Shown one piece after another: positions 4,301-59,893 of a stretch of 64,000 bases of DNA. Position 1 is the first letter of the stretch. Each line of letters begins with the position of its first letter. Both the position numbers and the translations under genes were made by a program. Below the pieces are notes generated by a model. The model saw only the letters and a program-made list of their open reading frames with translations. It did not search any database and was not told the origin of the DNA. Location of the stretch: IMG/VR virus record IMGVR_UViG_3300036790_000270, positions 53,212-117,211 of that record. The stretch is one strand, 5' to 3'. The stretch is from a virus.

Positions 4301-6603
4301 TGCTCGGCCCGTCGGTCAGCAACCTGTTCCAGACGCTGAGCTCGTTCACCTACAGCGCGGGCAGCCACACCTCCGCGGCGGCCAGCAGCTCCTGCGCGCA
4401 GGGCGGCGGCGTCGTGCTCATTGAGTCGGCTGCTCCCGTCTTCGACCTGGTGGTCACGGACTCCGCGGGCAACACCTACGTCAACCAGCAGCAGCAGGGC
4501 GGCGGCAGCGGCGGGGCGACCGGCTGCATCTACGTTTTCAGCACCCCGCTGGCCTTCCCGGTTACTACCAGCACCACCCTGACCGTCACCTCGGCGACCA
4601 GCCAGGAGTACGGCGCCATCTGGTACGCCTCGCCGTGGATCACCGACGCCACCGGCTCCAACAACGGGCAGGGCAACGGCACCGGGACCGCGGTCAGCGG
4701 CCAGTTCGGCACTGCCGACAACGTGTCCGCGCAGTATGAGCTGGTGCTCGCGTTCAACGCCACCAATCAGACCTTCGGGACCCCCACTTACGGCGGCAAG
4801 CTCTGGTACGCACCCGGCTCGACCAGCTCCCTGGTGGCGGGCGGCAGCCTGTCCATGCAGGCGTACGTGGGACTGAACTCCGGCGGCGGCACCGGCTCGG
4901 CTAACGGGGACGCCTTCGCGCAGGCCATCGGCGGCAGCTCCTCCTGGGCGGTGCTGTGCATCCCGCTCATGGCGGCCAGTCAGCAGGCGTACGCGCCGCA
5001 GCTCGACTGGCGGGCCGGCACCACCCCGGGAGCGTCGACCACCTGGGGCACTGACTGCTCCATCTCGGCGGAGGGCATGATCGCCGTCGTCGGGATGGCC
5101 GGGTCCGGCAGCGGCATCACGGCGGGGCCGTCCGCGTTCAGTGACCAGGGCGGCAACGTCTACACGGTGCAGAACACGACGGTGCTGCCGTCTAGCGGCG
5201 GGGTGATGTTCCTGGCGACCGCGCCGGTCACCGCGGCGATGACGCAGGGCGCGTCGGGCACGGTCAGCTGGGGGCACGCGTCGGCCGCGCCCAACTACTG
5301 GACGGCCGCCTACTGGATTCCGAACGCCACCGGCCTGGACGGGGTCTCTGCGGTGACCGGCAGCAGCGGTACGCCGTCGGGGGTCTACGCGCCGTCTGCC
5401 AGCAACGACATGACCCTGGCGGTGCTCGGGAACGCGGTGAGCGTTACGGCGTCAGGCACGATGGCCGCGCCGTGGAACTACCTGGACGCCAATAGCCAGG
5501 CGTACCTGTCGGGGCAGACGTGGGCCTGCCAGGTGACTGACCGGACGGCGGTTACCGCCGCCACGACGATGACCTCCGACCCGTGGGCGATGCTCCTGGC
5601 CGGGTTCACGATGAACGTGCGGGCAGGCGGCGGCGGCGCAGCCGGGGGTCCTGGTAACACGGGCTACCCGTCGACCTTCTACGGCGGCGGTCCGGGTTAC
5701 GCGGGCGGCGGCAAGGGCGGCCTGGGCGCGCAGTCCCTTAATACCAACGGCGGCGGCGCGTCACTGCCCGGCGGCGGGGGCGGCGGCTCCTACGGGGCGA
5801 CCACCACCTCGATCGAGGGCGGGCAGGGCGGGCAGGGCGCCGCGCGGATCACCTACTCGCCGCCGCTCACCCCGTTTAACACGCTGATCGTGCACCGGCC
5901 GGGGACGACCGCGAGCAAGAACCTGAACCCGCTGTGCCCGATCCCGATCACCGACGTGCCGAACAACACCGAGTACACGGTGACCAATGCGGTGCAGGCG
6001 TCGATCCCGGCGGCGTTCAACAGCACCTACACCGTCATCCTGGTCAACCACGCCTGGGACTCGGCCACCCTCGGTACCGCGCGGACGATCACCGTGACGA
6101 TCTCCCAGTACGAGTACCCGGGCGGCCCGGCCTCGTCAGTGCAGGTCAGTCGCGCCGTGACGCCCTCAACTGACGTGGTCAACGGAATTCTCAACATGGG
6201 CGAAGTCACCTTGCCGGTCAAGGATTACGCCAAGTTCAATAACCAGGCGTACTTCACGGTGAGTATCAACGACACTGACGCCAGCGACCGGTTCATGGAC
6301 GTCCTGTTCCTGGACACCACCGGGCAGACCGTCCTGCTGAACATCGACCCGAGCCAGCCTGGCTACAACACCTACGTCAACTTCTACATTGACGAGCCGA
6401 CCGCCGACCGCGACCTCGGCTTCATCGGCGGCACCTGCCAGGACCGGCAGCACAACGTCTCGCTGATGGAGTACACCTTCGTCTCCGGCGGCCCGCTGTA
6501 CATCGGCGCGGGTGACAACCTGCTGCTCACCTACAGCCCAAGTGGCGCGCCGAGTCTCGGGCTGAGTTATAGCCCGCGCTGGTACCTAGACAGGATTGTC
6601 TAG
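1342..6603 (+). CDS. Large Gly-rich minor tail protein (distal-tail/fibre-like, possible N-terminal carbohydrate-binding module)
   Basis: ~1750-aa ORF after the TMP; GGAGGA RBS before GTG 1342; repeated 'VE(A/C)WGGGGGG' Gly-rich domains. Confidence 0.8.
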   Translation: MAAYSGSSYPYWLTLQGNGSVANAGAQSENIPVTPGTDYAFTVVAAYSGFFSGGIKLTLAWYESGGTPISSVTATSGAMAPNELVEVATASTAAPSLASYAIATVAQDGLPGASNVLSVFAATVTPAASIPVNINYAFTWTFWPWEGVNDATLGWQADQFLVDNNDSLVLSGVIELMGGAGGVECTAIPELLDANGVGPRYRILAAPSLNTAAYGYEASYDMNAPQPTQDVVASMLLDGERPFGTRASNRTISLPIIIFGTLNGGMKQVLAAREYLMSLIDQQVWQITWTSSGSGLPMLYDCFRALPSIPLYGFNYSSGGSAVGSAAAATHGGALGRPNYPIAMITVTLQALPYGRSDIDGIQNLAIANSLINSPVPPGSQGVDNFSSVTGGQGWVQDDTKFVQGGTASIRYDAPVPVSSPYPAAIYAHSLSAPVSVIGLPAIAVWLGQAYDTQWAPSPSFVSNVTLAWTLTDGLGRTLSFSATQNAAPWGALPSTPQWTLVSAPIPQASASFSYGDVTGYSVVVTNWAGSGNTGLVRMHAWLNDLVAVPQTVANQPSPRGVLYNLFSLPGSARAPINVQCQLPATAPVVQEITTPASGSWIVPPSVYQLEAEAWGGGGGGATVNQARPTAGAGGGGGEYAAEPLLNVIPGAVVPYSLGSGGTPSQVQDTVIDITTPGAHSWLCPPNVTSLLVECWGGGGAGAAGSGGGGAGGYSSSTVTVVPGQSYNLSVGAGGTANSGTTSADNAARNGAATWFGNSSATGISNALVAASGGTSPTTGSTSGGSGGSNSGCPGTTQYPGGNGGWAPGGGGGGGGGCAGHSGRGGHGRAPASNGFGAVWCGSGSGGSGSGQGGNGGNGSSCPGTPSGGFFPGGGGGGGFCGTYFQYAAQPVQATPGTAQVNYMGANGANGMVQLTYAIGNGIAVNGGATIFGSAGTTGTVVTANGGASAALNSVTGAAGGSGSANTVHESGGAGGLNTSGTYGSWMLGPSVSNLFQTLSSFTYSAGSHTSAAASSSCAQGGGVVLIESAAPVFDLVVTDSAGNTYVNQQQQGGGSGGATGCIYVFSTPLAFPVTTSTTLTVTSATSQEYGAIWYASPWITDATGSNNGQGNGTGTAVSGQFGTADNVSAQYELVLAFNATNQTFGTPTYGGKLWYAPGSTSSLVAGGSLSMQAYVGLNSGGGTGSANGDAFAQAIGGSSSWAVLCIPLMAASQQAYAPQLDWRAGTTPGASTTWGTDCSISAEGMIAVVGMAGSGSGITAGPSAFSDQGGNVYTVQNTTVLPSSGGVMFLATAPVTAAMTQGASGTVSWGHASAAPNYWTAAYWIPNATGLDGVSAVTGSSGTPSGVYAPSASNDMTLAVLGNAVSVTASGTMAAPWNYLDANSQAYLSGQTWACQVTDRTAVTAATTMTSDPWAMLLAGFTMNVRAGGGGAAGGPGNTGYPSTFYGGGPGYAGGGKGGLGAQSLNTNGGGASLPGGGGGGSYGATTTSIEGGQGGQGAARITYSPPLTPFNTLIVHRPGTTASKNLNPLCPIPITDVPNNTEYTVTNAVQASIPAAFNSTYTVILVNHAWDSATLGTARTITVTISQYEYPGGPASSVQVSRAVTPSTDVVNGILNMGEVTLPVKDYAKFNNQAYFTVSINDTDASDRFMDVLFLDTTGQTVLLNIDPSQPGYNTYVNFYIDEPTADRDLGFIGGTCQDRQHNVSLMEYTFVSGGPLYIGAGDNLLLTYSPSGAPSLGLSYSPRWYLDRIV

Positions 6604-37439: not shown

Positions 37440-38204
37440 CTACGGCCGCAGCAGCCAGGAGAAGATCTCCGCGCCCTCGTTCCGCTCGGTCACCGTCGCC
37501 GAGTTGGCTTCCTCCCGGGCCATCTTCACCGCGGTGCGCAGTGCCGACAGCCGGTCGAGCAGCTCCGCCTTCCGCTTCGCCTCCAGGGCGCCGGAGAAGC
37601 TCACCGTCGTGTTGTACTCGACGATCTCGTCGCGGGTCATCACGTCGACCTGCTCCTGGATCGTCGGGGTGCCGTTGCCGCGGTGCCAGTTGAACATGAC
37701 CTTGTCCTTCAGGTCACCTTCCTGCGGGCGCACCGAGCGCCACTGGCCGGGCTCGGTGTTCTCATTCGTCCAGTCCTGCACCCCGTTCAGCACCGGGAGC
37801 GCCTGCACGATGGCGTGCAGCTTGGTGAGCTCGCCTTCCAGGTACACCAGGTGCCGGACCGGGACGTCGTGCATGACGGTGTGCGGCCCGACCACGACGT
37901 CCGCCTTCGCCGCGCCCTGGGCGGTGTCCAGGGTCAGCGCGGTGTCCCACTTGGCAGTCAGCAGCGTCTTCACGTCATCGAGGACCTGAACCGCGGTGTA
38001 GGCGACCTTCTTCTTCACGTCGGGGGTCACCCGGCGGCGCTGGTGGTTCGGGTCGACGGAGTCACTCGCCGCGACCGACTCCTTCTCCATCCCGCTGAAC
38101 AGCTCCGGCTTGGCGACCACCTGGGACACCCGGGCGAGCGCCGTGTCGGTCTCGGTGTTAACCCCGCTGATGATCGCAAGCAGCTGGTGAATCCGGACGG
38201 GCAT
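37440..38204 (-). CDS. Conserved helical/coiled-coil protein of unknown function (family recalled as DUF7873-like; unverified)
   Basis: 'IHQLLAI...LFSG...ADVVV...VPVRHLVYLE...LPVL...FSGAL...VKMAREEAN' resembles a widespread actinobacterial/phage family; AGGAG RBS. Confidence 0.75.
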   Translation of the reverse strand: MPVRIHQLLAIISGVNTETDTALARVSQVVAKPELFSGMEKESVAASDSVDPNHQRRRVTPDVKKKVAYTAVQVLDDVKTLLTAKWDTALTLDTAQGAAKADVVVGPHTVMHDVPVRHLVYLEGELTKLHAIVQALPVLNGVQDWTNENTEPGQWRSVRPQEGDLKDKVMFNWHRGNGTPTIQEQVDVMTRDEIVEYNTTVSFSGALEAKRKAELLDRLSALRTAVKMAREEANSATVTERNEGAEIFSWLLRP

Positions 38205-43815: not shown

Positions 43816-44205
43816 TCATTCACAAGCGGGGTCCTCCGTTGCCTCCGGGTCGTCACGGAACGAGTGCCAGTCAACCTCAAGCCACGCCAGCCCGCGGACC
43901 TCATCGACCTCGGCCACAACCGCGTCAGCCGCGATGCCGTCGAACGGCTCAACGGCCAGGACCTTGCCCCCTGTGGCAACGGGGCCGTCAGCCTGCGAGA
44001 GGCGGCCGTAAGCTCGGCCCTTCCGGTCGTGCTCGTTGAAGTCGACGGGGATGCGGACGGTCACGGCTGCCCGCACCTGCTCTAGCGCCCCGGCCAGGTA
44101 CGCGGCCAGCATCTCCGCGCGGTTGAACTGCTCGGCGTTGTCACCGTGCATGTTCTCCAGCCAGGCGGCGGCTTTCTCCTCGGGCAGCAGTTCATGTGTT
44201 GTCAT
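43816..44205 (-). CDS. Hypothetical protein
   Basis: 'MTTHELL...IPVDFNE...' ORF in the leftward block. Confidence 0.5.
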   Translation of the reverse strand: MTTHELLPEEKAAAWLENMHGDNAEQFNRAEMLAAYLAGALEQVRAAVTVRIPVDFNEHDRKGRAYGRLSQADGPVATGGKVLAVEPFDGIAADAVVAEVDEVRGLAWLEVDWHSFRDDPEATEDPACE

Positions 44206-44468
44206 GACGCGTGCAACAGGTGACTGGTAACTTCTGTTCCTGGTCACGGTGCGTAGTACGCACAGGATCACACACCGGTGTCTTGTAGCACGTCACGGAA
44301 AGTAACAGCAGGCTTTGCCCGGTCATGACCGGCCGCCGGCGCCCCCGGTCTTACGCTGGGCCTGCCCCTGCGGCCGGGACCCGGAGCCAGGGCCGCGCTT
44401 CCCGTCAGCACCGCCCGGAGGAGGCTGCTCATGCCCGTTGCTGTTACCAGTGATCCGGAAGCTGCCCA

Positions 44469-47400
44469 GTGAGCCGCGCGGCTGAGCCGTTCCGGCTGAC
44501 CACCGGGCGGTGGCACAACCGCTACGACCCGGAGACCGGCCGCACCGCCAAGGCCCCCTGCTACCTGGCCGGCTTCACCTACGACGACTTCGAGTACGGC
44601 GGCGACTACCCGGCCGCCTACCTGCCGGAGGCAGACCCCCCGGAGAGCGTGCAGACCTCCCTGATCTGCGCCCCGTCCACGTTCCTGCTGGTCATCGACG
44701 TCGACCACCCCGAGCAGCTGGGCCCCAGCGCCACCGGGCAGCTGGTCTCCTGGCACGACGCCATGTCCGTGCGCGGCAGCCACTTCCACGTCGGCGTCGA
44801 CATGCGCGGCGCCCGGCCGCAGGACTGGCCGCTGCAGGGCCGCACCCCGTGGGGGGACGTCAAGTCCAACGGGTTCGTCGCCGCCCCCGGCTCCGTGCAC
44901 TACGGCGGCGAGCCCTACGCCCGCACCTCCGCCACCGTCCAGGAACGGCTCGTCGGGTGGACCCCGGAGCTGCTGTCCGCCCTGGCCGCCGACAAGGCCG
45001 CCCTGGTAGCGGCGAAGCGCGCCGAATGGGGCATCGCGGCAGGGGCCAGGCTGGACGGCGGCGGCTACCTGTACGCCAGCGGGTACACGGGCGGCAGCTG
45101 GGAGGCTATCCCCGACGGCGGCCTCAGGCACGACGACGAGCTGAAAGACCTGCTCTGGGACATGCACGTCGAGTACGGCCGGGACGAGGCCGAGTGCCGC
45201 GCCCAGTGGGAGCGCCTCGCCGGGGCGCTGGGCAAGCCGTGGACGGAGCGGGACTTCACCCGGCACTGGCACCGCGTCCCCGCCCGCCGCCTGGACCGCC
45301 TCGAAGACGACGACGCCTACAAGCTGGACCGGGACTTCGGGCTGCGGGTACTGCCCCCGGCCGTCGAGCAGGAGTACAGCCGCCAGCAGGCCGACTGGGA
45401 GCAGCGGGCCAAGGCCGCCGCCGACGAGGGGCGCCAGCCGCCCACCCCGGTCCCCGCCGACGGCCCCTTCGAGGACCCGGGTGACCCCGGCGCCGACCTG
45501 TTCGACTGGAACCTCGGCGTCGGCGCCTACCAGCGGCCGTTCGACGCCGGGCCGCCCAGCGACTCCGACAACGCCCGCGCCGTGCTGTCGCGGATCGGCG
45601 GCGTGTGCGCCTACCTGACCGACCGCGGCATCTGGCTCAAGCGGGTCGGCGCCCGCTGGGACGACCAGGAACTGGGCGCCAACCTGCGCCCGGTGCTGGC
45701 CGCCGTCGAGGAAGTCATGCCCGCTGGCTGCGCCGACCCGGTCAAGGTGCTGGACCTGGACGCCGACGACGACGCCCCGCAGGTGGCGGCACTTAAAGCG
45801 CAGGCCAAGAACCTGGAGCGGTTCAAGTCAACCGCGTCGCGGCAGTCCGTCGCCACCGCCTGCGCGGACACCGCCATCCGGTACTCCGGCCGCGGCCTGG
45901 CGACCCGCGCCGACGCCCTTGACACCGAGCCTGAGGTGCTGTGGGCGGGCGGGGTGCCCTGGGACCTGCGCGCCTCCCGCAACGGGCCCGTACGGGCCGC
46001 CCTGAGCCGTTACCAGCCGCACCTGATGAGCGCCGCCGTGGTCCCCGACCTGTCCGGGCCGCACGACCGCTGGGACGCGCTGACCGCGGCCATCTGGCCG
46101 GACGAACGGGGCCGCGAATGGGCGCTGCAGGTGCTCGCCGTCGCCTTCACCGGCTACTCCGACGCGGTCATGCCGATCCTGATGGGCGACCCCGGCCGGG
46201 GCAAGACGCACCTGGTCAAGCGGCTGATCGACGTCCTGGGGGGCAACACCTCCTGGAGCTACGGCGGCGTGATGAACGCCGACCTGCTGCGGTCGGACGC
46301 CAAGCTGCACGGCACCTTCACCCTCGACCTGAAAGGCAAGCGGCTCGCGTTCATCGACGAGGCCCCCGGGCACGGGCTCGCCGCCCAGCGCAGGCTCAAG
46401 TCCCTCACCGGCGGCGGCGCGCTGCAGGGCAACCGGATGCGGGAGAACCCGGTCAGCTTCGCGCCCACCCACACGCTGGTGATGACCGCCAACCACGAGG
46501 ACCCGCCGCCGCTCGACGAGCCCGCACTGCAGCGCCGGGCCCGGCTGATCTTCTTCGAGGGGGACCTGGCCGCCGTCGACGCCGCCAGCCGCGACATCGA
46601 CGGCGGGGAGCCCCAGCGGGCCGCCTGGCGCAAGGAGATGCCCTGGGTGCTGGCCCGGATGATGCAGCTGGCAGCCGCCTGGCTGGATAACCGCGGCGTC
46701 GCCGACGCCGACCGCGCCCCGCTCGACTGGCAGAACAAGAAAGACACCGAGATCAGCACCCAGGACCCGGTCCTCGCCTGGCTGGACTCCGGTGAGGTCG
46801 CGCCCGACCCGGCGGGCACCAGGTCCTCGGTGCTCCGGGAGAACTTCGTGTCCTGGTGCAAGAACCAGGGACTGGCCGCGCCGACCGTGACCAAGTGGGG
46901 CCGGCGGCTTACTGAACTCGGCTTCCCGGTCACCGGGCGTGACGCCGGCGGCAGGTACCGGCCCCTCAAGCCAGTTCTGCCTGGTGCGGCGGACTTCATG
47001 CATGGTTCAGGCGGCCGGTCAACTATGCAGCAAACCGTACATCCGGAGAATCCCCAGGTCAGCGGTAGCTCTATGTATAGTTTGTATAGTTTGTATAGTA
47101 AAAACAACACTACACAGGAAGAGAGTATAAATAACCCCCTAGCACCCCCTACCAGCACACATATAAATAAGGGGGAAAGTGGGAAAACTGAGCAACCGTG
47201 CACAGCCCCCGAAAATGTATGGTCTGACCTGGGGATTCATAGTTCTGTGCACGGTTCTGAGACCATGCAAGACAGTGCACAACCCGGCACAACCCCCCTG
47301 GCGAGCAAACCCCATACGCCGTACAGGAAATCGGGCGCGGAACCGGCCGCCACTCATAAGAGCCGTCCGGCCGAAACGGGCAAAAACGACAAAATAGTCG

Positions 47401-48194
47401 AAAAACCCAAAACCCCCCCAAGTGGGAAAAACCCGAAAAACCGGCTGAGCGAGGAAGAGAAGCTGGCCCGAGCCCAGGCGCGCAAGGAGAGGCTGGCCGC
47501 CGAACGGCTCGCGGCCCGGCAGGCGAGAATCACCGAACTGGGCGGCCCGCTGGTGCCGCTGCCCGCGGTGGTGCTCCGCGACCAGCGCGTCCTGCCGGTG
47601 ACGCCGGAGGCAGCCGCCCGGTGGCTGGAAGGCTGCCTGGCCGAGCTGAGCGTCGACGTCGAGCACACCGGCTACCCGCGGACGCACAAGGACTACCGGC
47701 TGCGCCTGGTGCAGCTCGGCAACGAGGGCTCCGCCGTGGTGCTCGACCCGGCCGACCCGGCGCAGGCGGCAGTGATCCGGGATGCCCTGGCGAGCGCGAC
47801 GGTGCTGCACGCCCACTCGGCGCTGGCCGACCTGATCCCCCTGGAAGCCACCGGGCTCGGCGACGCCAGCATGTGGGACAAGATGATCGACACGGTGAAC
47901 ATCGCCAAGCTGAGCGACCCGGCCCTGTGCGACAGCGACGAGGCCGGCCTGAAGGCCCTGGCGAGGAACCTGCTGGGTCCTGACTACGCCCTGAGCTGGC
48001 GGCTGGACGAGCTGCGCAAGGAGATCTTCGCGGCCGGCGGCTGGATCGGGGACTGCGAGGTGACCACCCCGGCCGAGCGCAGCGGCTGGGCGAGCATTCC
48101 CTTGTGCGAGAGCTTCGTGCGTTACAGTGCGAGTGATGTACTCGACTGCGCCGCTGTGGCGCGCGTTCTAGGCGGAGGACCCGTTGGCGGGTAA
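44469..48194 (+). CDS. Fusion: prim-pol primase + D5-like SF3 helicase + low-complexity linker + PolA-type 3'-5' exonuclease
   Basis: 'LLVIDVD', 'HFHV', 'DVKSNGFVAAPGS'; Walker A 'GDPGRGKT', 'AFIDE'; ExoI 'SVDVEHTG', ExoII 'HAHSALADL', ExoIII 'YSASDV'. Confidence 0.85.
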   Translation: MSRAAEPFRLTTGRWHNRYDPETGRTAKAPCYLAGFTYDDFEYGGDYPAAYLPEADPPESVQTSLICAPSTFLLVIDVDHPEQLGPSATGQLVSWHDAMSVRGSHFHVGVDMRGARPQDWPLQGRTPWGDVKSNGFVAAPGSVHYGGEPYARTSATVQERLVGWTPELLSALAADKAALVAAKRAEWGIAAGARLDGGGYLYASGYTGGSWEAIPDGGLRHDDELKDLLWDMHVEYGRDEAECRAQWERLAGALGKPWTERDFTRHWHRVPARRLDRLEDDDAYKLDRDFGLRVLPPAVEQEYSRQQADWEQRAKAAADEGRQPPTPVPADGPFEDPGDPGADLFDWNLGVGAYQRPFDAGPPSDSDNARAVLSRIGGVCAYLTDRGIWLKRVGARWDDQELGANLRPVLAAVEEVMPAGCADPVKVLDLDADDDAPQVAALKAQAKNLERFKSTASRQSVATACADTAIRYSGRGLATRADALDTEPEVLWAGGVPWDLRASRNGPVRAALSRYQPHLMSAAVVPDLSGPHDRWDALTAAIWPDERGREWALQVLAVAFTGYSDAVMPILMGDPGRGKTHLVKRLIDVLGGNTSWSYGGVMNADLLRSDAKLHGTFTLDLKGKRLAFIDEAPGHGLAAQRRLKSLTGGGALQGNRMRENPVSFAPTHTLVMTANHEDPPPLDEPALQRRARLIFFEGDLAAVDAASRDIDGGEPQRAAWRKEMPWVLARMMQLAAAWLDNRGVADADRAPLDWQNKKDTEISTQDPVLAWLDSGEVAPDPAGTRSSVLRENFVSWCKNQGLAAPTVTKWGRRLTELGFPVTGRDAGGRYRPLKPVLPGAADFMHGSGGRSTMQQTVHPENPQVSGSSMYSLYSLYSKNNTTQEESINNPLAPPTSTHINKGESGKTEQPCTAPENVWSDLGIHSSVHGSETMQDSAQPGTTPLASKPHTPYRKSGAEPAATHKSRPAETGKNDKIVEKPKTPPSGKNPKNRLSEEEKLARAQARKERLAAERLAARQARITELGGPLVPLPAVVLRDQRVLPVTPEAAARWLEGCLAELSVDVEHTGYPRTHKDYRLRLVQLGNEGSAVVLDPADPAQAAVIRDALASATVLHAHSALADLIPLEATGLGDASMWDKMIDTVNIAKLSDPALCDSDEAGLKALARNLLGPDYALSWRLDELRKEIFAAGGWIGDCEVTTPAERSGWASIPLCESFVRYSASDVLDCAAVARVLGGGPVGG
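47020..47440. other. Putative replication origin (AT-rich, iteron-like repeats) inside the primase ORF
   Basis: Sharp GC drop; TGTATAGTT x3 at 47074-47100; roughly ten degenerate ACYRTRCA octamers on both strands. Confidence 0.6.
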
Positions 48195-49137
48195 GCGTAT
48201 TGCTAAAAAGGGTAGTTCAGGTCGTTCAAACCGGACGCCAGGGAAACACGGGGTAACGGACAAGGTAGCCGGGCGCCTGTTCGGGATACTTCAGAGAGAA
48301 AGCACGCGCAGGAACGTCGAGTACGATCTCCGCCAGCCTGTGTGGAAGATACAAGGTTACGACTTGTGCGCCGGGGACGGTGTCTTCGCTGACGACGAGG
48401 CGTTTCACCGGAACACGTCGCCCGGGATATTCGCCTATCACGCTCAGTTTGCCGCAGGAACAGCGTTTGCCCTCCCGGTTGAGGCGCACCTGTACGAGAT
48501 CAAGGAAGCGAATTACCTGAGCCTTCTAGCCGCCATGCGGCGCTGGCTGCCTGAAATGCACAAGATTCAGCCGAGCAGGCGGTTCCATCCGGTTCCGTAC
48601 CAGGAAGTTTCCGAGGGAGTATTCCGCGCCGGCCGCGTTACGGTAACGCTGCACCACGGTGACGGCGCCAGCGCTTCCCTTGACGGAGTCGATCCCTATA
48701 CGGCCGTGCTCGTCTTGCACGATCCGAACTCGATGCTCGCCTGGCCGCTGACACCCGAGTGGCTCTGGCAGCTGCACAATCGCACCAACCTGGTGACCCT
48801 GGTGAACACCATGGGGTGCAACGTAGCCGGGATCAAGCGCATAAGCCCGGAAGAGCGCGACGGGTGGTTTACCCGGGTTACCGCAGTCCTCAGCGTGTCC
48901 TCCCGGTGGCACGACACGCTGTTCGCCAGCCTGCACGGCGACCCGGCCCAGTGGGCGTACCTGATTACCGTGCCGCGTGCCTTCTGGGCAGCTACTGAGA
49001 AGGAAACCCTCCGGTCGTTTGAAAAGCACGGGTTCAAGCTTGATACCGCCTGGTACCGGACAGACCCGGTGCGGTTCGCGGAACTTCAGGAGCAGCATTT
49101 CCTGCGGAAAACAGAACGGGAGGCTCCCGGTGCCTGA
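48184..49137 (+). CDS. Three-Cys-motif partner (TcmP-like, SAM-MTase fold) protein
   Basis: 'YDLCAGDG' SAM-binding-like motif, 'LYEI', 'VLHDP'; adjacent to DUF5131, the known partner. Confidence 0.6.
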   Translation: MAGKRIAKKGSSGRSNRTPGKHGVTDKVAGRLFGILQRESTRRNVEYDLRQPVWKIQGYDLCAGDGVFADDEAFHRNTSPGIFAYHAQFAAGTAFALPVEAHLYEIKEANYLSLLAAMRRWLPEMHKIQPSRRFHPVPYQEVSEGVFRAGRVTVTLHHGDGASASLDGVDPYTAVLVLHDPNSMLAWPLTPEWLWQLHNRTNLVTLVNTMGCNVAGIKRISPEERDGWFTRVTAVLSVSSRWHDTLFASLHGDPAQWAYLITVPRAFWAATEKETLRSFEKHGFKLDTAWYRTDPVRFAELQEQHFLRKTEREAPGA

Positions 49138-50572
49138 TTACGGTCCCTACCGGGTTCATCCGTTCGCCGACGAGTTTCCTCTTCTTGTCAACGACGAGTT
49201 CGACGCACTGGTCGCCAGCATCAAGGCGAACGGCCTGTACCAGAACATCCTGCTCACCGCGGACCAGTCCACGATCGTAGACGGCCGCAACCGTTACCGG
49301 GCCTGTATAGCGGCCGGGCTTGACCCGGTGTTCGACGTTCTGGAAGCGAACGTCAGCGAACCGGACCTGCTCGACATGATCCTCGCACTTAACCTCGATC
49401 GCCGGCACCTGAACCAGGCCCAGCGGGCTCTTATCGCACGGGCGTACGAACGCTATTACGCAGATGCTGTTCCCGCGCCCGTACGTGATGAGACTGGAAA
49501 GTACGTTTCCGCAGGTGAAACCGAAGGACCAGATCTGGTCCCGCGGACGGACGATCCGTCTACGCGCTCTGCGGCAAAGGCGGCCAAGGTTACGGGCGCG
49601 TCGCGGACCGGGGTGACGATGGTGCGGGCGATCGAGCGGGACGCGCCGGACCTGATCCCGCGGATGGCGGCGGGCAAGTTGTCGTTGAACGCAGCGGAGG
49701 CTGAGCGCAAGGCCCGGGTCGCCAGGCAGCCGAAGCCCGAGGTGGTGAAGCCTGCGCCGGTCTTGCTGACGCTGCTGACGCACACGGGCGAGGAGTTTCC
49801 GTACCCGAAGCCGCTGCACCCGGCGTCGTTCAACGAGACGCGCGGCGACGGCATTTCCTGGGCCGCGTGGTCATGGAACCCGGTGACCGGCTGCCTGCAC
49901 GGGTGTGACTACTGCTATGCCCGGGAGATCGCCACGTCTACCCGGTTCGCCGCGGCGTACCCGGCCGGGTTCACCCCGCTGTTCCACCCCGAGCGGCTAG
50001 AGGCCCCGAACCACACCCGCGTGCCGGTTCCGCGCCGGGAAGATCCTGCTTACAAGCGCGTGTTCGTCTGCTCGATGGCGGACCTTTACGGGCGCTGGGT
50101 GCCCGACGGCTGGATCGAGCAGGTGCACGCTTCGATGGCGGCCAGCCCGCAGTGGCAGTACATCACCCTGACCAAGTTCCCGGAGCGGTACGAGACGCTG
50201 CCCCCGCCGCCGGGAGCCTGGGTCGGTACGTCCGTGGACGAGCAGAAGCGGGTCAAGCGGGCTGAGAGCGTGTTCTCCAAGCTGGAGGGTGCGGCGGTGA
50301 AGTGGCTTTCGCTGGAACCGTTGCGTGAGTCGCTAGCGTTTACGGACCTGTCCGTGTTTGACTGGGTGGTCATCGGCGGACAGACGGCTACGGTGCAGCC
50401 CGATGGCCCGGTAGGACGGTTCGCACCGCCGTTTGAGTGGGTAGCCCGGATCTGGGCGCAGGCGAAGGAAGCAGGCTGCCGGGTGCACTTGAAGCCGAAT
50501 TTGCTGATTAGTGACGGGCATCCGGGGATGCAGCTGCCCGACGAGTATCCGGAGGTGTCGTCTTATGATTGA
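49130..50572 (+). CDS. ParB-like N-terminal domain fused to DUF5131 (Gp37/Gp68 three-Cys radical-SAM-like)
   Basis: 'VHPFADEFP...SIKANG...IVDGRNRYRAC...NLDRRHL'; 'SWNPVTGCLHGCDYCYA', 'VFVCSMADL', 'SLEPL', 'DWVVIGG'. Confidence 0.85.
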   Translation: MPDYGPYRVHPFADEFPLLVNDEFDALVASIKANGLYQNILLTADQSTIVDGRNRYRACIAAGLDPVFDVLEANVSEPDLLDMILALNLDRRHLNQAQRALIARAYERYYADAVPAPVRDETGKYVSAGETEGPDLVPRTDDPSTRSAAKAAKVTGASRTGVTMVRAIERDAPDLIPRMAAGKLSLNAAEAERKARVARQPKPEVVKPAPVLLTLLTHTGEEFPYPKPLHPASFNETRGDGISWAAWSWNPVTGCLHGCDYCYAREIATSTRFAAAYPAGFTPLFHPERLEAPNHTRVPVPRREDPAYKRVFVCSMADLYGRWVPDGWIEQVHASMAASPQWQYITLTKFPERYETLPPPPGAWVGTSVDEQKRVKRAESVFSKLEGAAVKWLSLEPLRESLAFTDLSVFDWVVIGGQTATVQPDGPVGRFAPPFEWVARIWAQAKEAGCRVHLKPNLLISDGHPGMQLPDEYPEVSSYD

Positions 50573-50789
50573 CTTCAGCGAGGCGCTGACCGCGATGAAG
50601 GCGGGAAAGCGGGTGACCCGCGCGGTGTGGGCGAGCGGGCGCGACGACTGGCACGGCGCGTTCGCCGAGATCCGGGAGGTTCCCGGTTACGAGCCGCAGA
50701 TCATGGTCGGCTATGCCGGCGGGACCCCCCGCCCGTTCGCCGGCGCCCAGTGGGACCTGCTTTCTGACGACTGGCAGGTTCTTGACTAA
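50565..50789 (+). CDS. DUF2829/Tad2-like (Thoeris anti-defence 2 sponge family) protein
   Basis: 'FSEALTAMKAGKRVTRAVW...DLLSDDW' family signature. Confidence 0.75.
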   Translation: MIDFSEALTAMKAGKRVTRAVWASGRDDWHGAFAEIREVPGYEPQIMVGYAGGTPRPFAGAQWDLLSDDWQVLD

Positions 50790-50807
50790 ATGGCTACAGG
50801 AGGTGCC

Positions 50808-52178
50808 ATGAAGAGGTTTACCGTACCGCGCTGCGCGCATTGCGAGTCTGGCGCATTATGCCGGTGCCAAGGTTCACGCTGCCGCGCTGCGCGCACTGCG
50901 ACGCGGGTTCATTATGCCGGCGCCAAGGTTCACGCTGCCGCGCTGCGCGCACTGCGCCGGGGGCGTCTTATTGCCGTCCCCGGCTGGCTGCTGGACCGCG
51001 AGCGCGACTTCCAGAAGGCGTTCCGCCCCGCCGCCCTCGACGGCGTGCTCCTCGACCCCGTTCAGGTAGAGCGGCTGGCCGTGGAGCACGCCGGGGCCCG
51101 GGAGGCGTCCAGGAGGCGCGTGGAGGATGCTACCGGCGGCCAGGTGACCAACCCGAAGTCCAGTGCCCAGGTAGGGCCCTACCTGGCCGCCACCGGCCGT
51201 TACGACCTGCCGCTGAGCGAGCGGACCGGGAAGCCGGGCGCCGCCAAGGGGGTGCTGGAGCCCTACGCCTACCTGGGGGACCAGCTGGCCCGGGACATCC
51301 TCGGCTACCGGGAGCACGACACCGCGCTCGGCCTGCTGCTGGAGCCGCGCCGTGAGCTGATCGAGCACGGTGACGGCCGGGTTCGCACGTCCATCCTGAC
51401 GCTGGCTGCCAACACCGGAAGAACCAGCTCGCGGAATGAGAACCTGCAACAGGTGAGCCGCCAGGGCGGGATGCGCGCCTGCCACCTGGCCGAGCCCGGC
51501 TGCCTGATCATCTCCGCGGACTTCGCCTCGGTGGAGGTGCGGGTGGGCGCCGCCCTATCAGGTGATAGCGGCATGCAGGAAATGATTAGGATGGGCGACC
51601 GGTACCCGGCCCGCAAAAAGGAGTTCGATTTTCACTGGCGTACTGCTATCTCTGTGTGGGGGCAGGAGGCGACCAAGGAGAACAGGTACACCGCTAAGCG
51701 AATAAACTTTCAGAAGATGTACGGGGGGGCGCCCAAGGGCTGCGCGGCGGCGGTCGGCATCCCGCTCCCCGAGGCGCGGACCGTGTTCTCCGCGTTCGAG
51801 GCGCTCGCTCCCGGCTACGTCGCGTGGGACCAGTGGGTCCGCGACTCGGTGCGCGCCGGGATGAAGTCGTTCACCACCTACAGCGGCCGGGAGATCTGGC
51901 TGACCGGCAAGGGCGAGCACGCCGCCGGCAACGCCGCCATCCAGGGCACCGCCCGCGAGTTCCTGGTGGACGCCGTGGCCAAGTGGGTGGCCGGGCCGTG
52001 GGGCGGCGCGGTCATCATGCCGGTCCACGACGAGCTGATCGCCTTTGACATTCCCGGGGCGGAGGCCGCCGACGCGACCGCGTTCCTGGTCAGCTGCATG
52101 GAAGCGGAGCTGAACGGGGTGAAGATCATCGCCGAGGCGAACGAGCCGAGTCCGTATTGGCTGGACGCTTCGTTATAG
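50808..52178 (+). CDS. DNA polymerase I (family A), polymerase domain only
   Basis: 'NTGRTSSRNENLQQV', motif A 'ISADFASVEVRV', motif B 'RYTAKRINFQKMYG', motif C 'PVHDELI'; GGAGG RBS before ATG 50808. Confidence 0.88.
   Translation: MKRFTVPRCAHCESGALCRCQGSRCRAARTATRVHYAGAKVHAAALRALRRGRLIAVPGWLLDRERDFQKAFRPAALDGVLLDPVQVERLAVEHAGAREASRRRVEDATGGQVTNPKSSAQVGPYLAATGRYDLPLSERTGKPGAAKGVLEPYAYLGDQLARDILGYREHDTALGLLLEPRRELIEHGDGRVRTSILTLAANTGRTSSRNENLQQVSRQGGMRACHLAEPGCLIISADFASVEVRVGAALSGDSGMQEMIRMGDRYPARKKEFDFHWRTAISVWGQEATKENRYTAKRINFQKMYGGAPKGCAAAVGIPLPEARTVFSAFEALAPGYVAWDQWVRDSVRAGMKSFTTYSGREIWLTGKGEHAAGNAAIQGTAREFLVDAVAKWVAGPWGGAVIMPVHDELIAFDIPGAEAADATAFLVSCMEAELNGVKIIAEANEPSPYWLDASL
50812..50980 (+). 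repeat. 56-bp tandem repeat, about 3 copies, at the 5' end of the polymerase ORF
   Basis: CCGCGCTGCGCGCA recurs at 50826, 50882 and 50938. Confidence 0.9.
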
Positions 52179-52203
52179 GTGTGACGCGGGGTAAGCTGCG
52201 CTC

Positions 52204-52407
52204 ATGAGCGATACCGAAAGCTCCACCACGTGGCCCAGGCTGCTAACGGTGGTCGAAGTGGCGAAAGTCCTGCGCGTCTCCAAGATGACCGTGTACCGGA
52301 TGGTGCACGACGGCGAGCTGCGCGCGGTGAAGGTGGGCCGCGGCTTCCGGGTGGAGGCTGCCTCCCTGCGCGAGCTGCTGCGCGCCAACGCGGTGCCCGT
52401 CAAGTGA
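52204..52407 (+). CDS. Excisionase-like/MerR-type HTH DNA-binding protein
   Basis: 'LLTVVEVAKVLRVSKMTVYRMVHDGELRAVKVGRGFRV'. Confidence 0.9.
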   Translation: MSDTESSTTWPRLLTVVEVAKVLRVSKMTVYRMVHDGELRAVKVGRGFRVEAASLRELLRANAVPVK

Positions 52408-52673
52408 TCACCGCCGCCGGGGTCTCCGGCAGCCTCAGCATCCTCGGGCTGCACGTCAGCGCCTGGACCGCGCTGGTCGCCACCGGGTTTTTCGCCCTCG
52501 GCCTGTTCGTGCACGGAAAATGGGGGAAATAGCATGAGCCTGGTCAAGAACAGCAAGGCGCCTTACGTCCAGTGCGCGCTACGCTGCAGTACCTGCCAGC
52601 AGGTATGCACCGCCCAGCGTGGCCACGCCGCCATGGCCGGGCACAGCTGCGGTCACTAGCCAAGGAGGAAAAC

Positions 52674-53069
52674 ATGACGCTGCAGGAAAACATGACGCTG
52701 CAGGACTACCGCTGCCTCTTCCGCGACCCGGCCGTCCCGCTCGGCCCCGAGAAACTGGAACTGCGCCGCCTGGTACTCAAGCAGGCGGAAGCCCACCCGG
52801 ACACCTTCAACATGACCGAATGGGAACTGTCGGCCGGCTGCCGCACCACCCGCTGCATCGCCGGCTGGGCGCAGTTCTTCGCCCGCGGGCAGGTCAACCA
52901 GCAGGAGGGCAGTTCCTTCGTGGAAACTGACGCGATCCGGCTGCTCGGCCTGACCGAGGAGGAGTTCTTCGACGTGGACGAGGCCGATGACCTGTTTCAC
53001 CTTGCTGACACGCCGGCCGTTGACCGGCTGCGTTACCTTGCCCGCGACCCGGAGGGAACTGAGCAGTGA
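52674..53069 (+). CDS. Hypothetical phage protein (paralog of 54289-54744)
   Basis: 'LELRRLVLKQAEAHPDTFNM..W...CRTTRCIAGWA'. Confidence 0.7.
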   Translation: MTLQENMTLQDYRCLFRDPAVPLGPEKLELRRLVLKQAEAHPDTFNMTEWELSAGCRTTRCIAGWAQFFARGQVNQQEGSSFVETDAIRLLGLTEEEFFDVDEADDLFHLADTPAVDRLRYLARDPEGTEQ

Positions 53070-55876: not shown

Positions 55877-56233
55877 TCACCTGCCTTCCCCCTTCAGCTC
55901 AGTCAGGGCCTCGTCCGCCAGGGCCTGCGCCCAGTCCGGCGCCTGGTCCAGCTCGAAGCTGTAGAACTTCTCACTCGCCGTCACGTTGCCCGGGGTGCCG
56001 TCCTTCTTGATCCGGCCGCCGCTGACGGTAAGCGAGCTGACCTTCAGGTTCGCGTAGCGGGGCAGCTCACTGTCCCGGAGCGTCCCGCAGGTCAGCTCTA
56101 CCCGCAGGCTGTCCGGCTGGTAACGCGCCAGGACGCTGCTGTACTTCACCGGCCGGTCCTCGACCTTCCCGCCGATCGTGTAGTAAGCGGTGAAAGACAG
56201 TTCGCCGGACAGGTGCGTTCTTGTCGCGTTCAC
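55877..56233 (-). CDS. Hypothetical protein
   Basis: 'VSGGRIKKDGTPG...APDW' motif seen in small actinophage proteins; overlaps neighbours. Confidence 0.6.
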   Translation of the reverse strand: MNATRTHLSGELSFTAYYTIGGKVEDRPVKYSSVLARYQPDSLRVELTCGTLRDSELPRYANLKVSSLTVSGGRIKKDGTPGNVTASEKFYSFELDQAPDWAQALADEALTELKGEGR

Positions 56234-57084
56234 GCTACTTTTTCCTCCTTCGCCGCGGACGGCTTACGGGCCCGGGGCTTGCGCGCGGGCTTCGGCGCGG
56301 TCGCCCGGCTCGCCTTGATGGACGCCTCGATCGCCGCCATGATGTCCTGCGGCGCGGTTACCGCTGCCTCCGTGCGCGGCGCCGGGGTGCCGACCGCCTG
56401 CCCGGTTTCCAGTTTCGCCTGGATCACCGCCGCCAGCTTCTCCTCGCTCGCGTCCGTGAAAGAGGACCAGTCGAACGGCTCGTCGAGTGCCGCCACCAGC
56501 TGCTGCGCCTGCGCCAGTTCCGGGGCGCTGACCAGGGTTGCGGGCGGCGCCGCGAAATCCGGCTGCTGCACCGACGTCCCCCAGGCCAGCCGCTCCAGCA
56601 CCAGGTAGCCGTCCGGGGTGGCGTACAGCAGGGCCAGGGCCTCCCGCTGCCGCACCGCGATGCTCACTACCGCCGCCTTCCCGGTCGCGGTCATCGCGGC
56701 GGCCAGCAGCGCGTACGGCTTCTCGCCGCCGTCGCCCGGCTGCACGTAGTAACTGGTCTCGTGCGCGGTGCGCGGCACGGTAACCGGGTCGGTGAACTGC
56801 AGGACCTTTGCGTGCCGGCTCTTGTCGCCGAACGCCCGCGCCAGGTCATCCTTCTCCACCAGCACCGTGCGGCCGTCCGGCGCCGCGTACCCCATGGTGA
56901 CGTCCTCCCAGCCGACCGGCGCGCCGTCCGCCTCCGCGACGTTCTGCTGCCTGATCCGGCTGCCGTCACTGCGCCGTACCCGGTGCAAGGGCAGCTTGCC
57001 CTCACTGACCGCCGGGCCCAGCTTTACCGGGAAGCTCAGCATTGACACGCCGATCGTTCCCGTCCAGATGCTCCGCATGCTCAT
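56230..57084 (-). CDS. ku: Ku-like DNA end-binding protein
   Basis: 'MRSIWTGTIGVSMLSFPVKL', 'DGSRIRQ', 'SYYVQP', 'PYALLAAAM', 'DIMAAIEASI'. Confidence 0.9.
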   Translation of the reverse strand: MSMRSIWTGTIGVSMLSFPVKLGPAVSEGKLPLHRVRRSDGSRIRQQNVAEADGAPVGWEDVTMGYAAPDGRTVLVEKDDLARAFGDKSRHAKVLQFTDPVTVPRTAHETSYYVQPGDGGEKPYALLAAAMTATGKAAVVSIAVRQREALALLYATPDGYLVLERLAWGTSVQQPDFAAPPATLVSAPELAQAQQLVAALDEPFDWSSFTDASEEKLAAVIQAKLETGQAVGTPAPRTEAAVTAPQDIMAAIEASIKASRATAPKPARKPRARKPSAAKEEKVA

Positions 57085-57108
57085 GCATCTCCCTTGTCGT
57101 GGCCAGCG

Positions 57109-57144
57109 GGCGGCATTCATATGGGTCTCGTGGCGTCTGTGGCC
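57109..57144 (-). repeat. Solo TIGR-like unit upstream of ku
   Basis: GGCG-GCATTCATA-TGGGTCTCG-TGGCGTCTG-TGGCC. Confidence 0.85.
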
Positions 57145-57431
57145 CGCTGGCCTGCTCGTGTACAGCCATGTGAATTTCACGGTTATTCCCGTGGGTACTG
57201 CTGCCCGGTCATCCAGGTGCAAATTCCGAACTCATAAACCTGCAGCGGCATGCGCTCCTGCCCGCGGATCATGAATAGCACGTGCTGGCCGGGCTCGCGT
57301 GCGCTTACTGCCGCCGCGTCGCCGTAGGCCTGCAGCAGGTTCTTCAAGAGGGGCGGGTAGATCCGGGGGACGCTGCCGCCGGCCAGCAGGTACCGGTCGG
57401 TGCTGGTCATGGTCCTCCCTTCAGGTGGTGC

Positions 57432-58708: not shown

Positions 58709-59893
58709 CTAGCGGGCCGCGACAAGCGCCAGTTCCAGTTGGGTGGCGTCCGGCGGCTGCTCCTCGTCCGGCCCGTACAGTTCCTCGCGCAGGCTGGCCG
58801 CCGCCTCCAGGATCTGCGCCGCGTAGCGGGCCTTGCCGTGCACGTCCTGCCCGGCCAGGGTGATGCCGCGCATGTCTGCCGACGGGCCCAGTGCCTTCGG
58901 CAGCAGCGTCTGCACCAGGTAGTTGCTGTCCATCTTCCGGTAGTTCTCGCCGTCCGGCAGGTCGCGCAGCGCGGTGATGACGTCACTGGTGAACAGCCGC
59001 TCGGCCCCGGTCGCCATGATGATGCCCGCCACGTCCAGCAGGCAGCGCTGGAAGGTGAGCAGCTGCGGCTTCTCGCTGGCGTCCAGCGCTAGCAGCCGGA
59101 ACGCGTCCATGCACTTGCCCGGCCACGCGCCGCCGGCCGCGCTGGCGACCGCGAACAGCGGCCCCCACAACTGCAGCCGCCGGTCGGTGAGCAGCGGGTG
59201 AACGCGCAGCACGCCGTCCAGCATGAACTTGCCCATTGACTCCGCGTTCGCCCGGGACCAGCCGTGCAGTGCCTCGCGCAGGTCATCGGCCTCCAGCCGG
59301 ACCGCTGGCGACAGCGCGTTCTGCAGCCGCAGCTTCGGCGGCTTCGGCTTCACCGGCATGATGATTGACCGGGTAGCCAGGTCATCGGGGACCGCGTTGT
59401 GCAGCCCGTTCATGAACGCCACGGTGAACGCGGGCAGGTCTTTCGCTACCCGGTCAACCGAGACCGAGATGGTGCCCGTGTTCAGGTAGCACTCGATCAG
59501 CAGCGAGTACAGCTTGCTGCCGCGCCCGTTCAGGCCCGCGTCCCCGAACGTCTTGCTGATGTCATCGCAGACCAGCGTCGGCTCGTCCCCCCGGGTGAGG
59601 AACCGGGAGTTGATGGCCGGCTCGGTGGTCAGCCTGCCGACCTTCCACGGGTTGAACGCCAGCATCCCCGGGATCTGCGCTGCCGCCGTCGTCTTCCCGG
59701 TGCCCGGCGAGTCACTGGTCACCAGGCAGTGCGGTACCGAGGTAAACGGCGCCTCATTCGCGTGCACTGCGTGCGTCACCGACAAGATCAGGGTGAGCAC
59801 GTCGATGTACTCCGGCGGCGCCCACCACAGCGTGGCGGTGAAGTTGCGGACCTCGTTCAGCACGAAGTCCGGCTTCTGACTAGAACGGCTCAT
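58709..59893 (-). CDS. P-loop ATPase, DUF3631-like (replication-associated)
   Basis: Walker A 'SDSPGTGKTT', 'PTLVCDD', 'VPDDLATRSII', 'LWGPLFAVA'. Confidence 0.7.
   Translation of the reverse strand: MSRSSQKPDFVLNEVRNFTATLWWAPPEYIDVLTLILSVTHAVHANEAPFTSVPHCLVTSDSPGTGKTTAAAQIPGMLAFNPWKVGRLTTEPAINSRFLTRGDEPTLVCDDISKTFGDAGLNGRGSKLYSLLIECYLNTGTISVSVDRVAKDLPAFTVAFMNGLHNAVPDDLATRSIIMPVKPKPPKLRLQNALSPAVRLEADDLREALHGWSRANAESMGKFMLDGVLRVHPLLTDRRLQLWGPLFAVASAAGGAWPGKCMDAFRLLALDASEKPQLLTFQRCLLDVAGIIMATGAERLFTSDVITALRDLPDGENYRKMDSNYLVQTLLPKALGPSADMRGITLAGQDVHGKARYAAQILEAAASLREELYGPDEEQPPDATQLELALVAAR

Follow-up and report, generated by a model that had tools for sequence, protein, structure and literature searches.

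How might a soil phage assemble a family A DNA polymerase (PolA) when the exonuclease and polymerase domains of this enzyme are encoded by two genes lying 2.6-2.8 kb apart? The question is raised by the IMG/VR virus record IMGVR_UViG_3300036790_000270, a linear sequence of 117 kb with an estimated completeness of 82%. We analysed bases 53212-117211 of this record, a stretch of 64,000 nucleotides with a GC content of about 68%, hereafter the window. A first-pass annotation had proposed that PolA is divided at this locus, and this proved correct: an open reading frame (ORF) at 44469-48194 ends just after the exonuclease (exo) domain, and a separate ORF at 50790-52178 encodes the polymerase (pol) domain with motifs A, B and C intact. 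The whole 117-kb record holds one exo match and one pol match only. We consider it likely that this two-gene PolA arose by fission of a larger fusion protein (hereafter mega-fusion) at the exo-pol linker and that the gap serves as a slot for accessory genes; the two halves may reassemble, and the cassette now occupying the slot may act in DNA modification or counter-defence.

The first gene (P0001; 44469..48194, + strand) codes for a protein of 1241 aa comprising Prim-Pol, a D5/DUF5906 SF3-type helicase, a linker and a PolA-type 3'-5' exonuclease. The Prim-Pol match in Pfam is weak (aa 63-155, nt 44655-44933; 18.9 bits, under the cut-off of 22.8). DUF5906, the D5-type helicase NTPase, scores above its cut-off with 40.8 bits (aa 571-690, nt 46179-46538), and PHROG primase families span residues 123-843. 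The exonuclease was recognized as DNA_pol_A_exo1 (PF01612; aa 1058-1224, nt 47640-48140; 29.4 bits versus a cut-off of 23.6). In an alignment of 20 exo sequences, residues D33, E35, Y189 and D193 are invariant and D91 is at least 90% conserved; the catalytic set is present, with the D-x-E of ExoI, the aspartate of ExoII and the Y-x3-D of ExoIII. When compared with solved structures, the exo profile retrieved nothing at E<=0.001. The ORF ends with '...YSASDVLDCAAVARVLGGGPVGG*', and its stop codon (48192-48194) is placed 7 residues past 'ARVL', the end of the exo domain.

The second gene (P0005; 50790..52178, + strand) codes for a pol-only PolA of 462 aa, and residues 96-442 match DNA_pol_A (PF00476) in Pfam with 145.9 bits versus a cut-off of 34.3. 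The sequence 'VPGWLLDRERDFQKAFRPAALDGVLLD' is found in this protein from residue 63, at about nt 50976. The conserved stretches that we take to be motifs A (SADF..VE.R), B (K..NF..MYG) and C (VHDE) of the family show no variation across 23 sequences and align with the Klenow motifs; the invariant residues include D244, E249, K303, F307, Y311, G312, H413, D414 and E415. A pol profile of the clade matches Klenow with E = 9.9e-34, and the best 60 solved-structure matches shown for this profile are Pol I, Klenow, Taq, Bst or PREX. In the coding regions of both halves, GC at third codon positions (GC3) reaches 0.9-1.0.

Alignment with uninterrupted homologues defined the junction. Fused forms read '...AAxARxLPxxxPxxLxRER...', with a variable spacing ('ARxLP-x3-7-L.RER'). 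Split forms break inside this exo-pol linker of 5-8 residues with nothing missing, and in the window pol homology begins 4-6 residues before 'LLDRER'. Position 21 of the clade pol profile aligns with residue 216 of the Klenow chain, which places position 1 at about residue 196, the exo/pol domain boundary of Klenow.

The split architecture is conserved throughout the clade. With the pol ORF as query, 117 protein matches were obtained, of which 52 lie at 64-83% identity (P0007-P0058). Apart from P0040, whose match begins at residue 88, these pol relatives (51 of the 52) open with 'M/V-x-x-P/S-x-x-LLDRER' at query residues 58-67, and none of the 52 has an exo match. Most pol matches at 60% identity or less are proteins of 590-760 aa with both exo and pol. 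The search with the exo region listed 120 proteins, 75 with PF00476 (most of them 1500-1950 aa long) and 45 without it. Among those listed, each of the 40 with at least 67% identity, the window's own protein included, is 1026-1273 aa long and carries helicase domains and no PF00476; several listed exo relatives come from sequenced Micromonospora, Nocardioides and Actinoplanes genomes.

The relatives also point to the ancestral form. Genomic context was read at 25 viral-contig loci and 8 metagenome loci, the latter mostly with little upstream DNA, and the domain architecture of the loci was sorted by a stop-to-stop frame test. At 12 of the 25 viral loci (L007, L009, L010, L011, L013, L014, L016, L017, L018, L020, L027 and L028), primase-helicase, exo and pol share one stop-free frame of 4.6-6 kb. 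Pfam recovered Prim-Pol, DUF5906 and DNA_pol_A on the translations of L007, L014 and L017 (1650-1710 aa), and the exo domain also on L017. Four more loci (L008, L012, L015 and L019) have exo and pol in a shared long or truncated frame, and eight (L021-L026, L029 and L030) have an exo-pol frame without a primase-helicase match, the pol of L029 being itself broken across two frames. Primase-helicase and exo in one frame, with pol apart, were found in the window, L006, L036 and L037. By exo identity, the nearest full mega-fusions (P0162, P0164 and P0165) stand at 63-64%. Because 12 relatives carry all the parts in one frame, the derivation of the window's genes from a mega-fusion, as the annotation had suggested, is well supported.

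The annotation had also cast the three genes between the halves as the interrupter, and this part of the proposal was not supported. L032, whose pol is 71% identical to that of the window, has no insert; its two genes are in different frames, and the stop of exo shares the bases TGATG with the start of pol. L035 (58%) likewise has no insert and a GTGA overlap with a change of frame. The halves are separated by a hydrophobic mini-ORF of 25 codons with GTGA overlaps on both sides in L036 (54%), and by a spacer of about 135 nt in L033 (70%). A cassette of about 1.7 kb, encoding a T5orf172 protein and a phrog_4652 protein, occupies the gap of L006 (72%) and L037 (75%). In L038 (75%), a DUF5131 gene 82.6% identical to that of the window is followed by an ORF of about 48 codons and then by pol, with no Tad2. 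Moreover, in a relative that co-occurs with the window in Logan contigs, 2197 nt take the place of the window's 3241 nt. Since relatives lacking the insert break at the same point, comparison of these sequences indicates that the insert is not required for the split. The annotation had itself named this outcome, separate halves in insert-free relatives, as one that would refute its reading. The complete L006 genome has no homologue of P0003, the second gene of the window's insert, and the record of the window has neither of the L006 cassette genes; hence, the gap differences reflect presence or absence and not relocation. The cassette types do not track the pol tree, each being scattered over different subclades.

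Small ORFs are located directly upstream of pol at L037 7182-7325 (about 48 codons), L038 903-1060 (about 48) and L036 4962-5045 (25), and the stop of each overlaps the start of pol as GTGA. Upstream of pol, L006 (9755-9980) and L037 (7090-7180) carry 'AGC'-periodic DNA ending in AGGA..TACC before the next start, which may be a lineage-specific regulatory repeat.

A pol tree of 64 rows was computed (IQ-TREE, midpoint-rooted, with three long-branch outgroup rows). The window falls in a clade of 21 rows with support 100/100, made up of 18 pol-only rows and three fused exo-pol rows (P0059, P0060 and P0065); for two of the 18 pol-only rows, the contig ends at the gene start. The sister clade contains the mega-fusion L027, exo-pol frames without a primase-helicase match and a pol-only row, P0069, whose contig (12,909 nt) seems to carry a helicase-exo protein of 1232 aa (P0174) as well. 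The deeper branches of the tree are mega-fusions. P0077, a truncated gene, was left out of the fission count. Our reading of the tree is that a mega-fusion underwent fission at least twice.

Several observations weigh against a simple account of fission followed by gene gain. The three fused rows nest, with support 99/99, in a seven-row subclade together with the split forms L035, L036, P0061 and P0063; therefore, one ancestral fission is insufficient, and either recurrent fission or re-fusion has to be invoked. Context was readable at eight split-clade loci, the window included, and on this basis a split that preceded the insert is no more than probable. The start of the window's pol gene is a further difficulty. 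The pol start of the relatives aligns with residue 61 in the window, where homology begins (nt 50970) and where the codon is ATT. In the absence of a canonical start at the conserved position, translation has to proceed from ATG 50808 or ATG 50790 through a repeat array, or from a non-canonical codon. The Logan contigs that cover the locus break inside this array, so that its copy number, and hence the reading frame from the upstream ATGs, is provisional.

The array is a 56-nt tandem repeat of 2.5 copies (50826..50965, + strand; 86% matches), located between the Tad2-like gene that closes the insert and the conserved N-terminus of pol. It is read in three frames, and the length of its unit is not a multiple of 3. 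The open pol frame begins at ATG 50790, directly after the Tad2-like stop, and the best canonical start is ATG 50808, with AGGAGG just upstream. The database gene call (P0006) starts pol at residue 111, and the conserved sequence would then be lost. RNA folding of the pol 5' region (50790-50990) revealed no special structure (z = 0.30). The consensus repeat unit, which is not an exact stretch of the window, had no exact match in 42 fetched loci, the window's own record included.

Could an insertion have come first? According to this explanation, a mobile cassette, for instance one with a GIY-YIG-like T5orf172 nuclease gene, broke the linker of the mega-fusion and was later lost or replaced by the genes of the window. 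T5orf172 genes (PF10544, E about 1.5e-8) do occur at the same site in two subclades, in L006 and L037. The lineage is also rich in invasions of pol, as seen in the insertion shared by L037, P0036 and P0042, in the interrupted pol of L026, L027 and L029, and in a distant group with a break just before motif A. Cultured Streptomyces phages provide a parallel: there, HNH or methylase genes separate the primase gene from that of a full-length PolA (617-656 aa), in a slot that lies before the exo domain and not, as in the window, after it. Against this order of events, the insert-free forms have compact, overlapping stops and starts in different frames, as given by the frameshift-type fission described for S-SBP1-like phages (PMC10201439), and no cassette is present in L035 and L036, the furthest diverged of the split loci whose context could be read. 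Moreover, the cassette proteins of L006 and L037 are 50-55% identical, under the 65-66% of their exo and pol, and thus no recent mobility of the cassette is shown. We regard an initial insertion as rather improbable, and fission before gene gain as the better account of these loci.

Other explanations fare much worse. An intron, DNA excision or, at the protein level, a split intein would restore a fused exo-pol, and the annotation had offered removal of the insert at the RNA or DNA level as an alternative. The break does lie exactly between domains that are contiguous in relatives, and the pol frame of this lineage often carries insertions. However, the covariance models of Rfam 15 gave no match at E<=1 on either strand over 46500-52500, so we detected no intron, and neither P0001 nor P0005 matches an intein or Hint family of Pfam (E<=0.01). 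The exo ORF ends so soon after its domain that no room is left for an N-intein, and the three insert genes are equipped with individual Shine-Dalgarno-like sequences and starts. Even where the insert is missing, relatives retain the stop and restart in a different frame, and gene callers begin 51 of the 52 close pol homologues at the junction. Removal of the insert is therefore very unlikely. The same holds for decay of one half, with replication left to host enzymes or to pol alone. The lack of a conserved canonical start and the repeat array in the pol 5' region would fit such decay; yet both ORFs are intact, the catalytic motifs are all invariant, and GC3 remains high in both coding regions. 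The architecture persists among relatives whose identity has fallen to 54-83%, which implies purifying selection.

An assembly artefact joining unrelated pieces seems to us the most improbable explanation. It draws on the break of the Logan contigs at 50895-50927, inside the 56-nt repeat. However, a Logan contig of 7061 nt from a soil run is identical to the window over 46500-50895 and thus spans the exo stop together with the first part of the insert, a second contig is identical from 50927 onward, and run X2 tiles alike, with the proviso that the Logan runs matching the window may be the source sample of the record. Separate support for the arrangement comes from the unrelated metagenome contig L038, with its DUF5131 gene beside pol, and from L006 and L037, which have the same break and another cassette.

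Fission at the linker thus remains the explanation that we favour. The fission itself, its junction, its conservation within the clade and the changing content of the slot are documented by the sequences compared here, in which no intron or intein signal was detected. The following route can be proposed. The ancestor would have been a Prim-Pol/SF3-helicase/exo/pol mega-fusion that was broken in the short exo-pol linker. The proofreading exo stayed covalently on the primase-helicase (44469-48194), and the polymerase domain is now a protein of its own (about 50808-52178). The gene boundary created in this way would then have offered a slot where accessory genes could be gained, replaced or lost. 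Finally, the free pol may dock non-covalently on the helicase-fused exo, rebuilding a Klenow-like exo-pol unit at the replisome. The suggestion of the annotation that the protein works as two subunits agrees with the catalytic motifs kept in both halves and with the conservation of the split across the clade, from which we infer it. A bolder version, which we put forward only tentatively, is that the exo carried by the helicase, presumably on every subunit of the ring, acts as a dock for exchangeable polymerases; in such a scheme, the linker would have been broken independently at least twice, and the slot would swap DNA-modification or anti-defence genes that are co-expressed with the replisome.

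In P0001, the helicase and the exo are joined by a low-complexity linker of about 200 aa (about nt 46990-47560, + strand), which contains a GC trough (46990..47440, + strand) with a minimum of 0.42 versus 0.68 for the window. The GC3 bias is gone in the trough, and a 9-nt tandem repeat, TGTATAGTT, is found there in 2.9 copies (47074-47099). The P0001 frame is open through 450 nt of 42-55% GC, in a region where the other frames are interrupted, and the C-terminal part of the linker is 62% identical to that of L006 at the protein level. On these grounds, we therefore read the helicase-exo fusion as real. An internal start yielding a free exo as the main product was considered and rejected: besides the open frame through the linker, all 39 listed homologues with at least 67% exo identity are recorded as helicase-exo fusions.

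A GC trough in the linker was also observed in L037 (about 4600-4750; 0.41), in weaker form in L006 and L036, and hardly at all in the mega-fusions. It might represent an embedded origin, a promoter or a recombination joint.

Comparison of L006 (4508-8233) with L037 (1921-5628) revealed a primase-helicase of another type in L006, with 28% identity between the two; in L006, Prim-Pol is found on a separate upstream ORF and the helicase has a D5_N match. Despite this low identity in the N-terminal primase-helicase module, their exo domains are 65% identical, and the linker tail and exo of L006 still show 62-74% identity to the window. A module N-terminal to the linker may therefore have been swapped. 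Because the exo is kept on a helicase even where the N-terminal module differs, tethering of the exo to the helicase seems to be under selection.

The annotation had described the genes in the gap as TcmP-like, ParB-DUF5131 and Tad2-like; the DUF5131 and Tad2-like assignments were borne out by Pfam, the ParB match fell under its Pfam cut-off, and the TcmP-like label was not confirmed. Gene 1 (P0002; 48184..49137, + strand; 317 aa) has a TTG start after GGAGG, an 11-nt overlap with the exo stop and a frame GC3 of 0.72-0.84. It has no match in Pfam, PHROG or NCBIfam (E<=0.1 for the latter), the TcmP model included. The source of the label is the predicted fold, which gave an Atlas structural lead to a TcmP-named cluster (TM 0.62) and to the methyltransferase RlmJ (TM 0.54), and P0002 should be regarded as a putative TcmP-like protein at most. 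TcmP partners with DUF5131 proteins. Gene 2 (P0003; 49130..50572, + strand) encodes a ParB_N-like and DUF5131 protein with a CxxxCxxC motif. Its frame is open from 48977, and the likely start is GTG 49130, with GGGAGG just upstream. DUF5131 (PF07505) scores 124.8 bits versus a cut-off of 28.9; ParB_N reaches 21.2 bits, under its cut-off of 26.3, and PHROG ParB-like families match at E = 1e-9. Gene 3 (50565..50789, + strand) encodes a Tad2-like protein (PF11195; 36.9 bits versus a cut-off of 25, residues 21-91) of 74 aa from ATG 50565, its start overlapping the stop of gene 2. Taken together, these assignments suggest that the cassette genes may act in DNA modification or counter-defence.

All five genes, from the helicase-exo gene to pol, are on the + strand, and their starts follow a GGAGG-like (Shine-Dalgarno-like) sequence and overlap or abut the previous stop. 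Since the genes are co-oriented and tightly packed or overlapping, the insert and the replication genes probably form one operon. A scan for promoters and terminators found 0 promoter-like and 3 terminator-like sites, with no excess over shuffled sequence.

How does this locus compare with known systems? Exo/pol fission in PolA has been reported for S-SBP1-like T7-like cyanophages (cluster #5), where it is presented as the first among PolAs (Czernecki et al., 2023; PMC10201439). Reassembly of the halves was deduced there from an AlphaFold complex (PMC10201439). The window shares with that case the location of exo and pol on separate genes after interdomain fission, and the frame change with overlapping stop and start in L032 and L035 resembles it closely. 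The S-SBP1-like exo is a small stand-alone gene adjoining pol, whereas the exo of the window is the C-terminal domain of a 1241-aa primase-helicase. The S-SBP1-like enzymes belong to a T7-like PolA subfamily; in contrast, the best solved-structure matches of the window are Klenow, Taq and Bst, and membership of that subfamily is not indicated. In addition, the parent form of the window's genes is a mega-fusion with four activities, fission appears recurrent, and the halves are 0-2.8 kb of variable genes apart.

Fusions of primase, helicase and polymerase are documented in Actinoplanes phage phiAsp2 (Pas55, PolA) and Lactococcus phage 1706 (gp55, PolB) (Kazlauskas et al., 2016; PMC4889955). Pas55 places a primase, an SF3 helicase and a replicative polymerase on one actinophage polypeptide, the kind of ancestor that we infer and that is seen in the 12 mega-fusion relatives. 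However, Pas55 is not close: it is 28% identical over 272 pol-domain residues, its N-terminus is DUF3854 and not Prim-Pol/DUF5906, and it gave no significant match to P0001. Unlike the 12 relatives, the window does not encode such a single polypeptide, as there is a stop between exo and pol. A further parallel is PREX, the apicoplast polyprotein of Plasmodium, in which a primase, a helicase, an exonuclease and a PolA are made together and processed into parts. PREX is eukaryotic and organellar, its primase being of the TOPRIM kind and its helicase Twinkle-type. Structures of its polymerase occur among the solved-structure matches of the window clade; in the window the separation is genetic.

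Split replication genes are also known outside PolA. The T4-like phage Aeh1 has split gp43 and NrdA, and the split is associated with a mobile endonuclease gene. In phiKZ-like phages, PolB is split, with the exonuclease on a separate ORF (Kazlauskas and Venclovas, 2011; PMC3201878). Like the window, these cases involve a phage replicase divided into exo-bearing and pol-bearing polypeptides; they concern family B polymerases or ribonucleotide reductase and not PolA, and none of them is known to have the exo fused to a primase-helicase. A literature search, which did not cover subscription journals, yielded the precedents cited here and no account of a pol-only gene that accompanies a primase-helicase-exo protein.

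The locus thus represents a second, unrelated and apparently recurrent exo/pol fission in family A polymerases, after that of the cyanophages reported in 2023. Since relatives in the fused, the freshly split and the insert-bearing state can all be compared, the route from a four-activity protein to a multi-subunit replicase can be read stepwise. A natural helicase-exonuclease fusion with a pol-only subunit also offers a biochemical test case for proofreading in trans and for polymerase exchange at the replisome. Moreover, the locus flags a conserved genomic slot where accessory genes turn over, including a Tad2-like candidate anti-defence gene.

The polymerase of this lineage is interrupted in other ways. 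L037 (7321-9555), P0036 and P0042 have an in-frame insertion of about 345 aa right after 'KRVNF' of motif B, which looks intein-like. Other large in-frame insertions in pol were observed in L027 (9881-12130), L026 (8600-10912), L029 (10085-11739), P0085 and P0117, L029 being the locus whose pol is broken into two ORFs. A distant group (P0112, P0114-P0116, P0118 and P0119) shows a second break, just before motif A. The C-terminal pol halves of this group are 258-268 aa long and start at, or within about ten residues before, '..GISADF..'; their counterpart, with exo and the N-terminal half of pol, seems to be P0113 (453 aa).

The contig loci described here were reached by alignment-based searches and not with a single protein, as a single-protein search for close relatives returned two weak, unrelated loci among genome contigs and none among viral contigs. 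No cultured phage resembles the record at the DNA level (megablast of 44000-53000 against cultured phages, no match), the best pol matches among cultured phages are about 30% identical, and tblastn of one mega-fusion reached at least 80% coverage in no cultured phage. The runs that hold this stretch are soil metagenomes, with no RNA run among those listed. As the proteins of the relatives carry the source labels Trebonia, Micromonospora, Nocardioides, Actinoplanes and Mycobacterium, an actinobacterium is the probable host.

Directly downstream of pol, the window encodes an HTH_17 DNA-binding protein (52204-52407, + strand), which L006 has as well and which is very widely shared among soil-run contigs. 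Other neighbours in the window, all on the - strand, are genes for a Ku homologue (56230-57222), a DUF3631 protein (58709-59893) and a DUF7873 protein (37440-38204).

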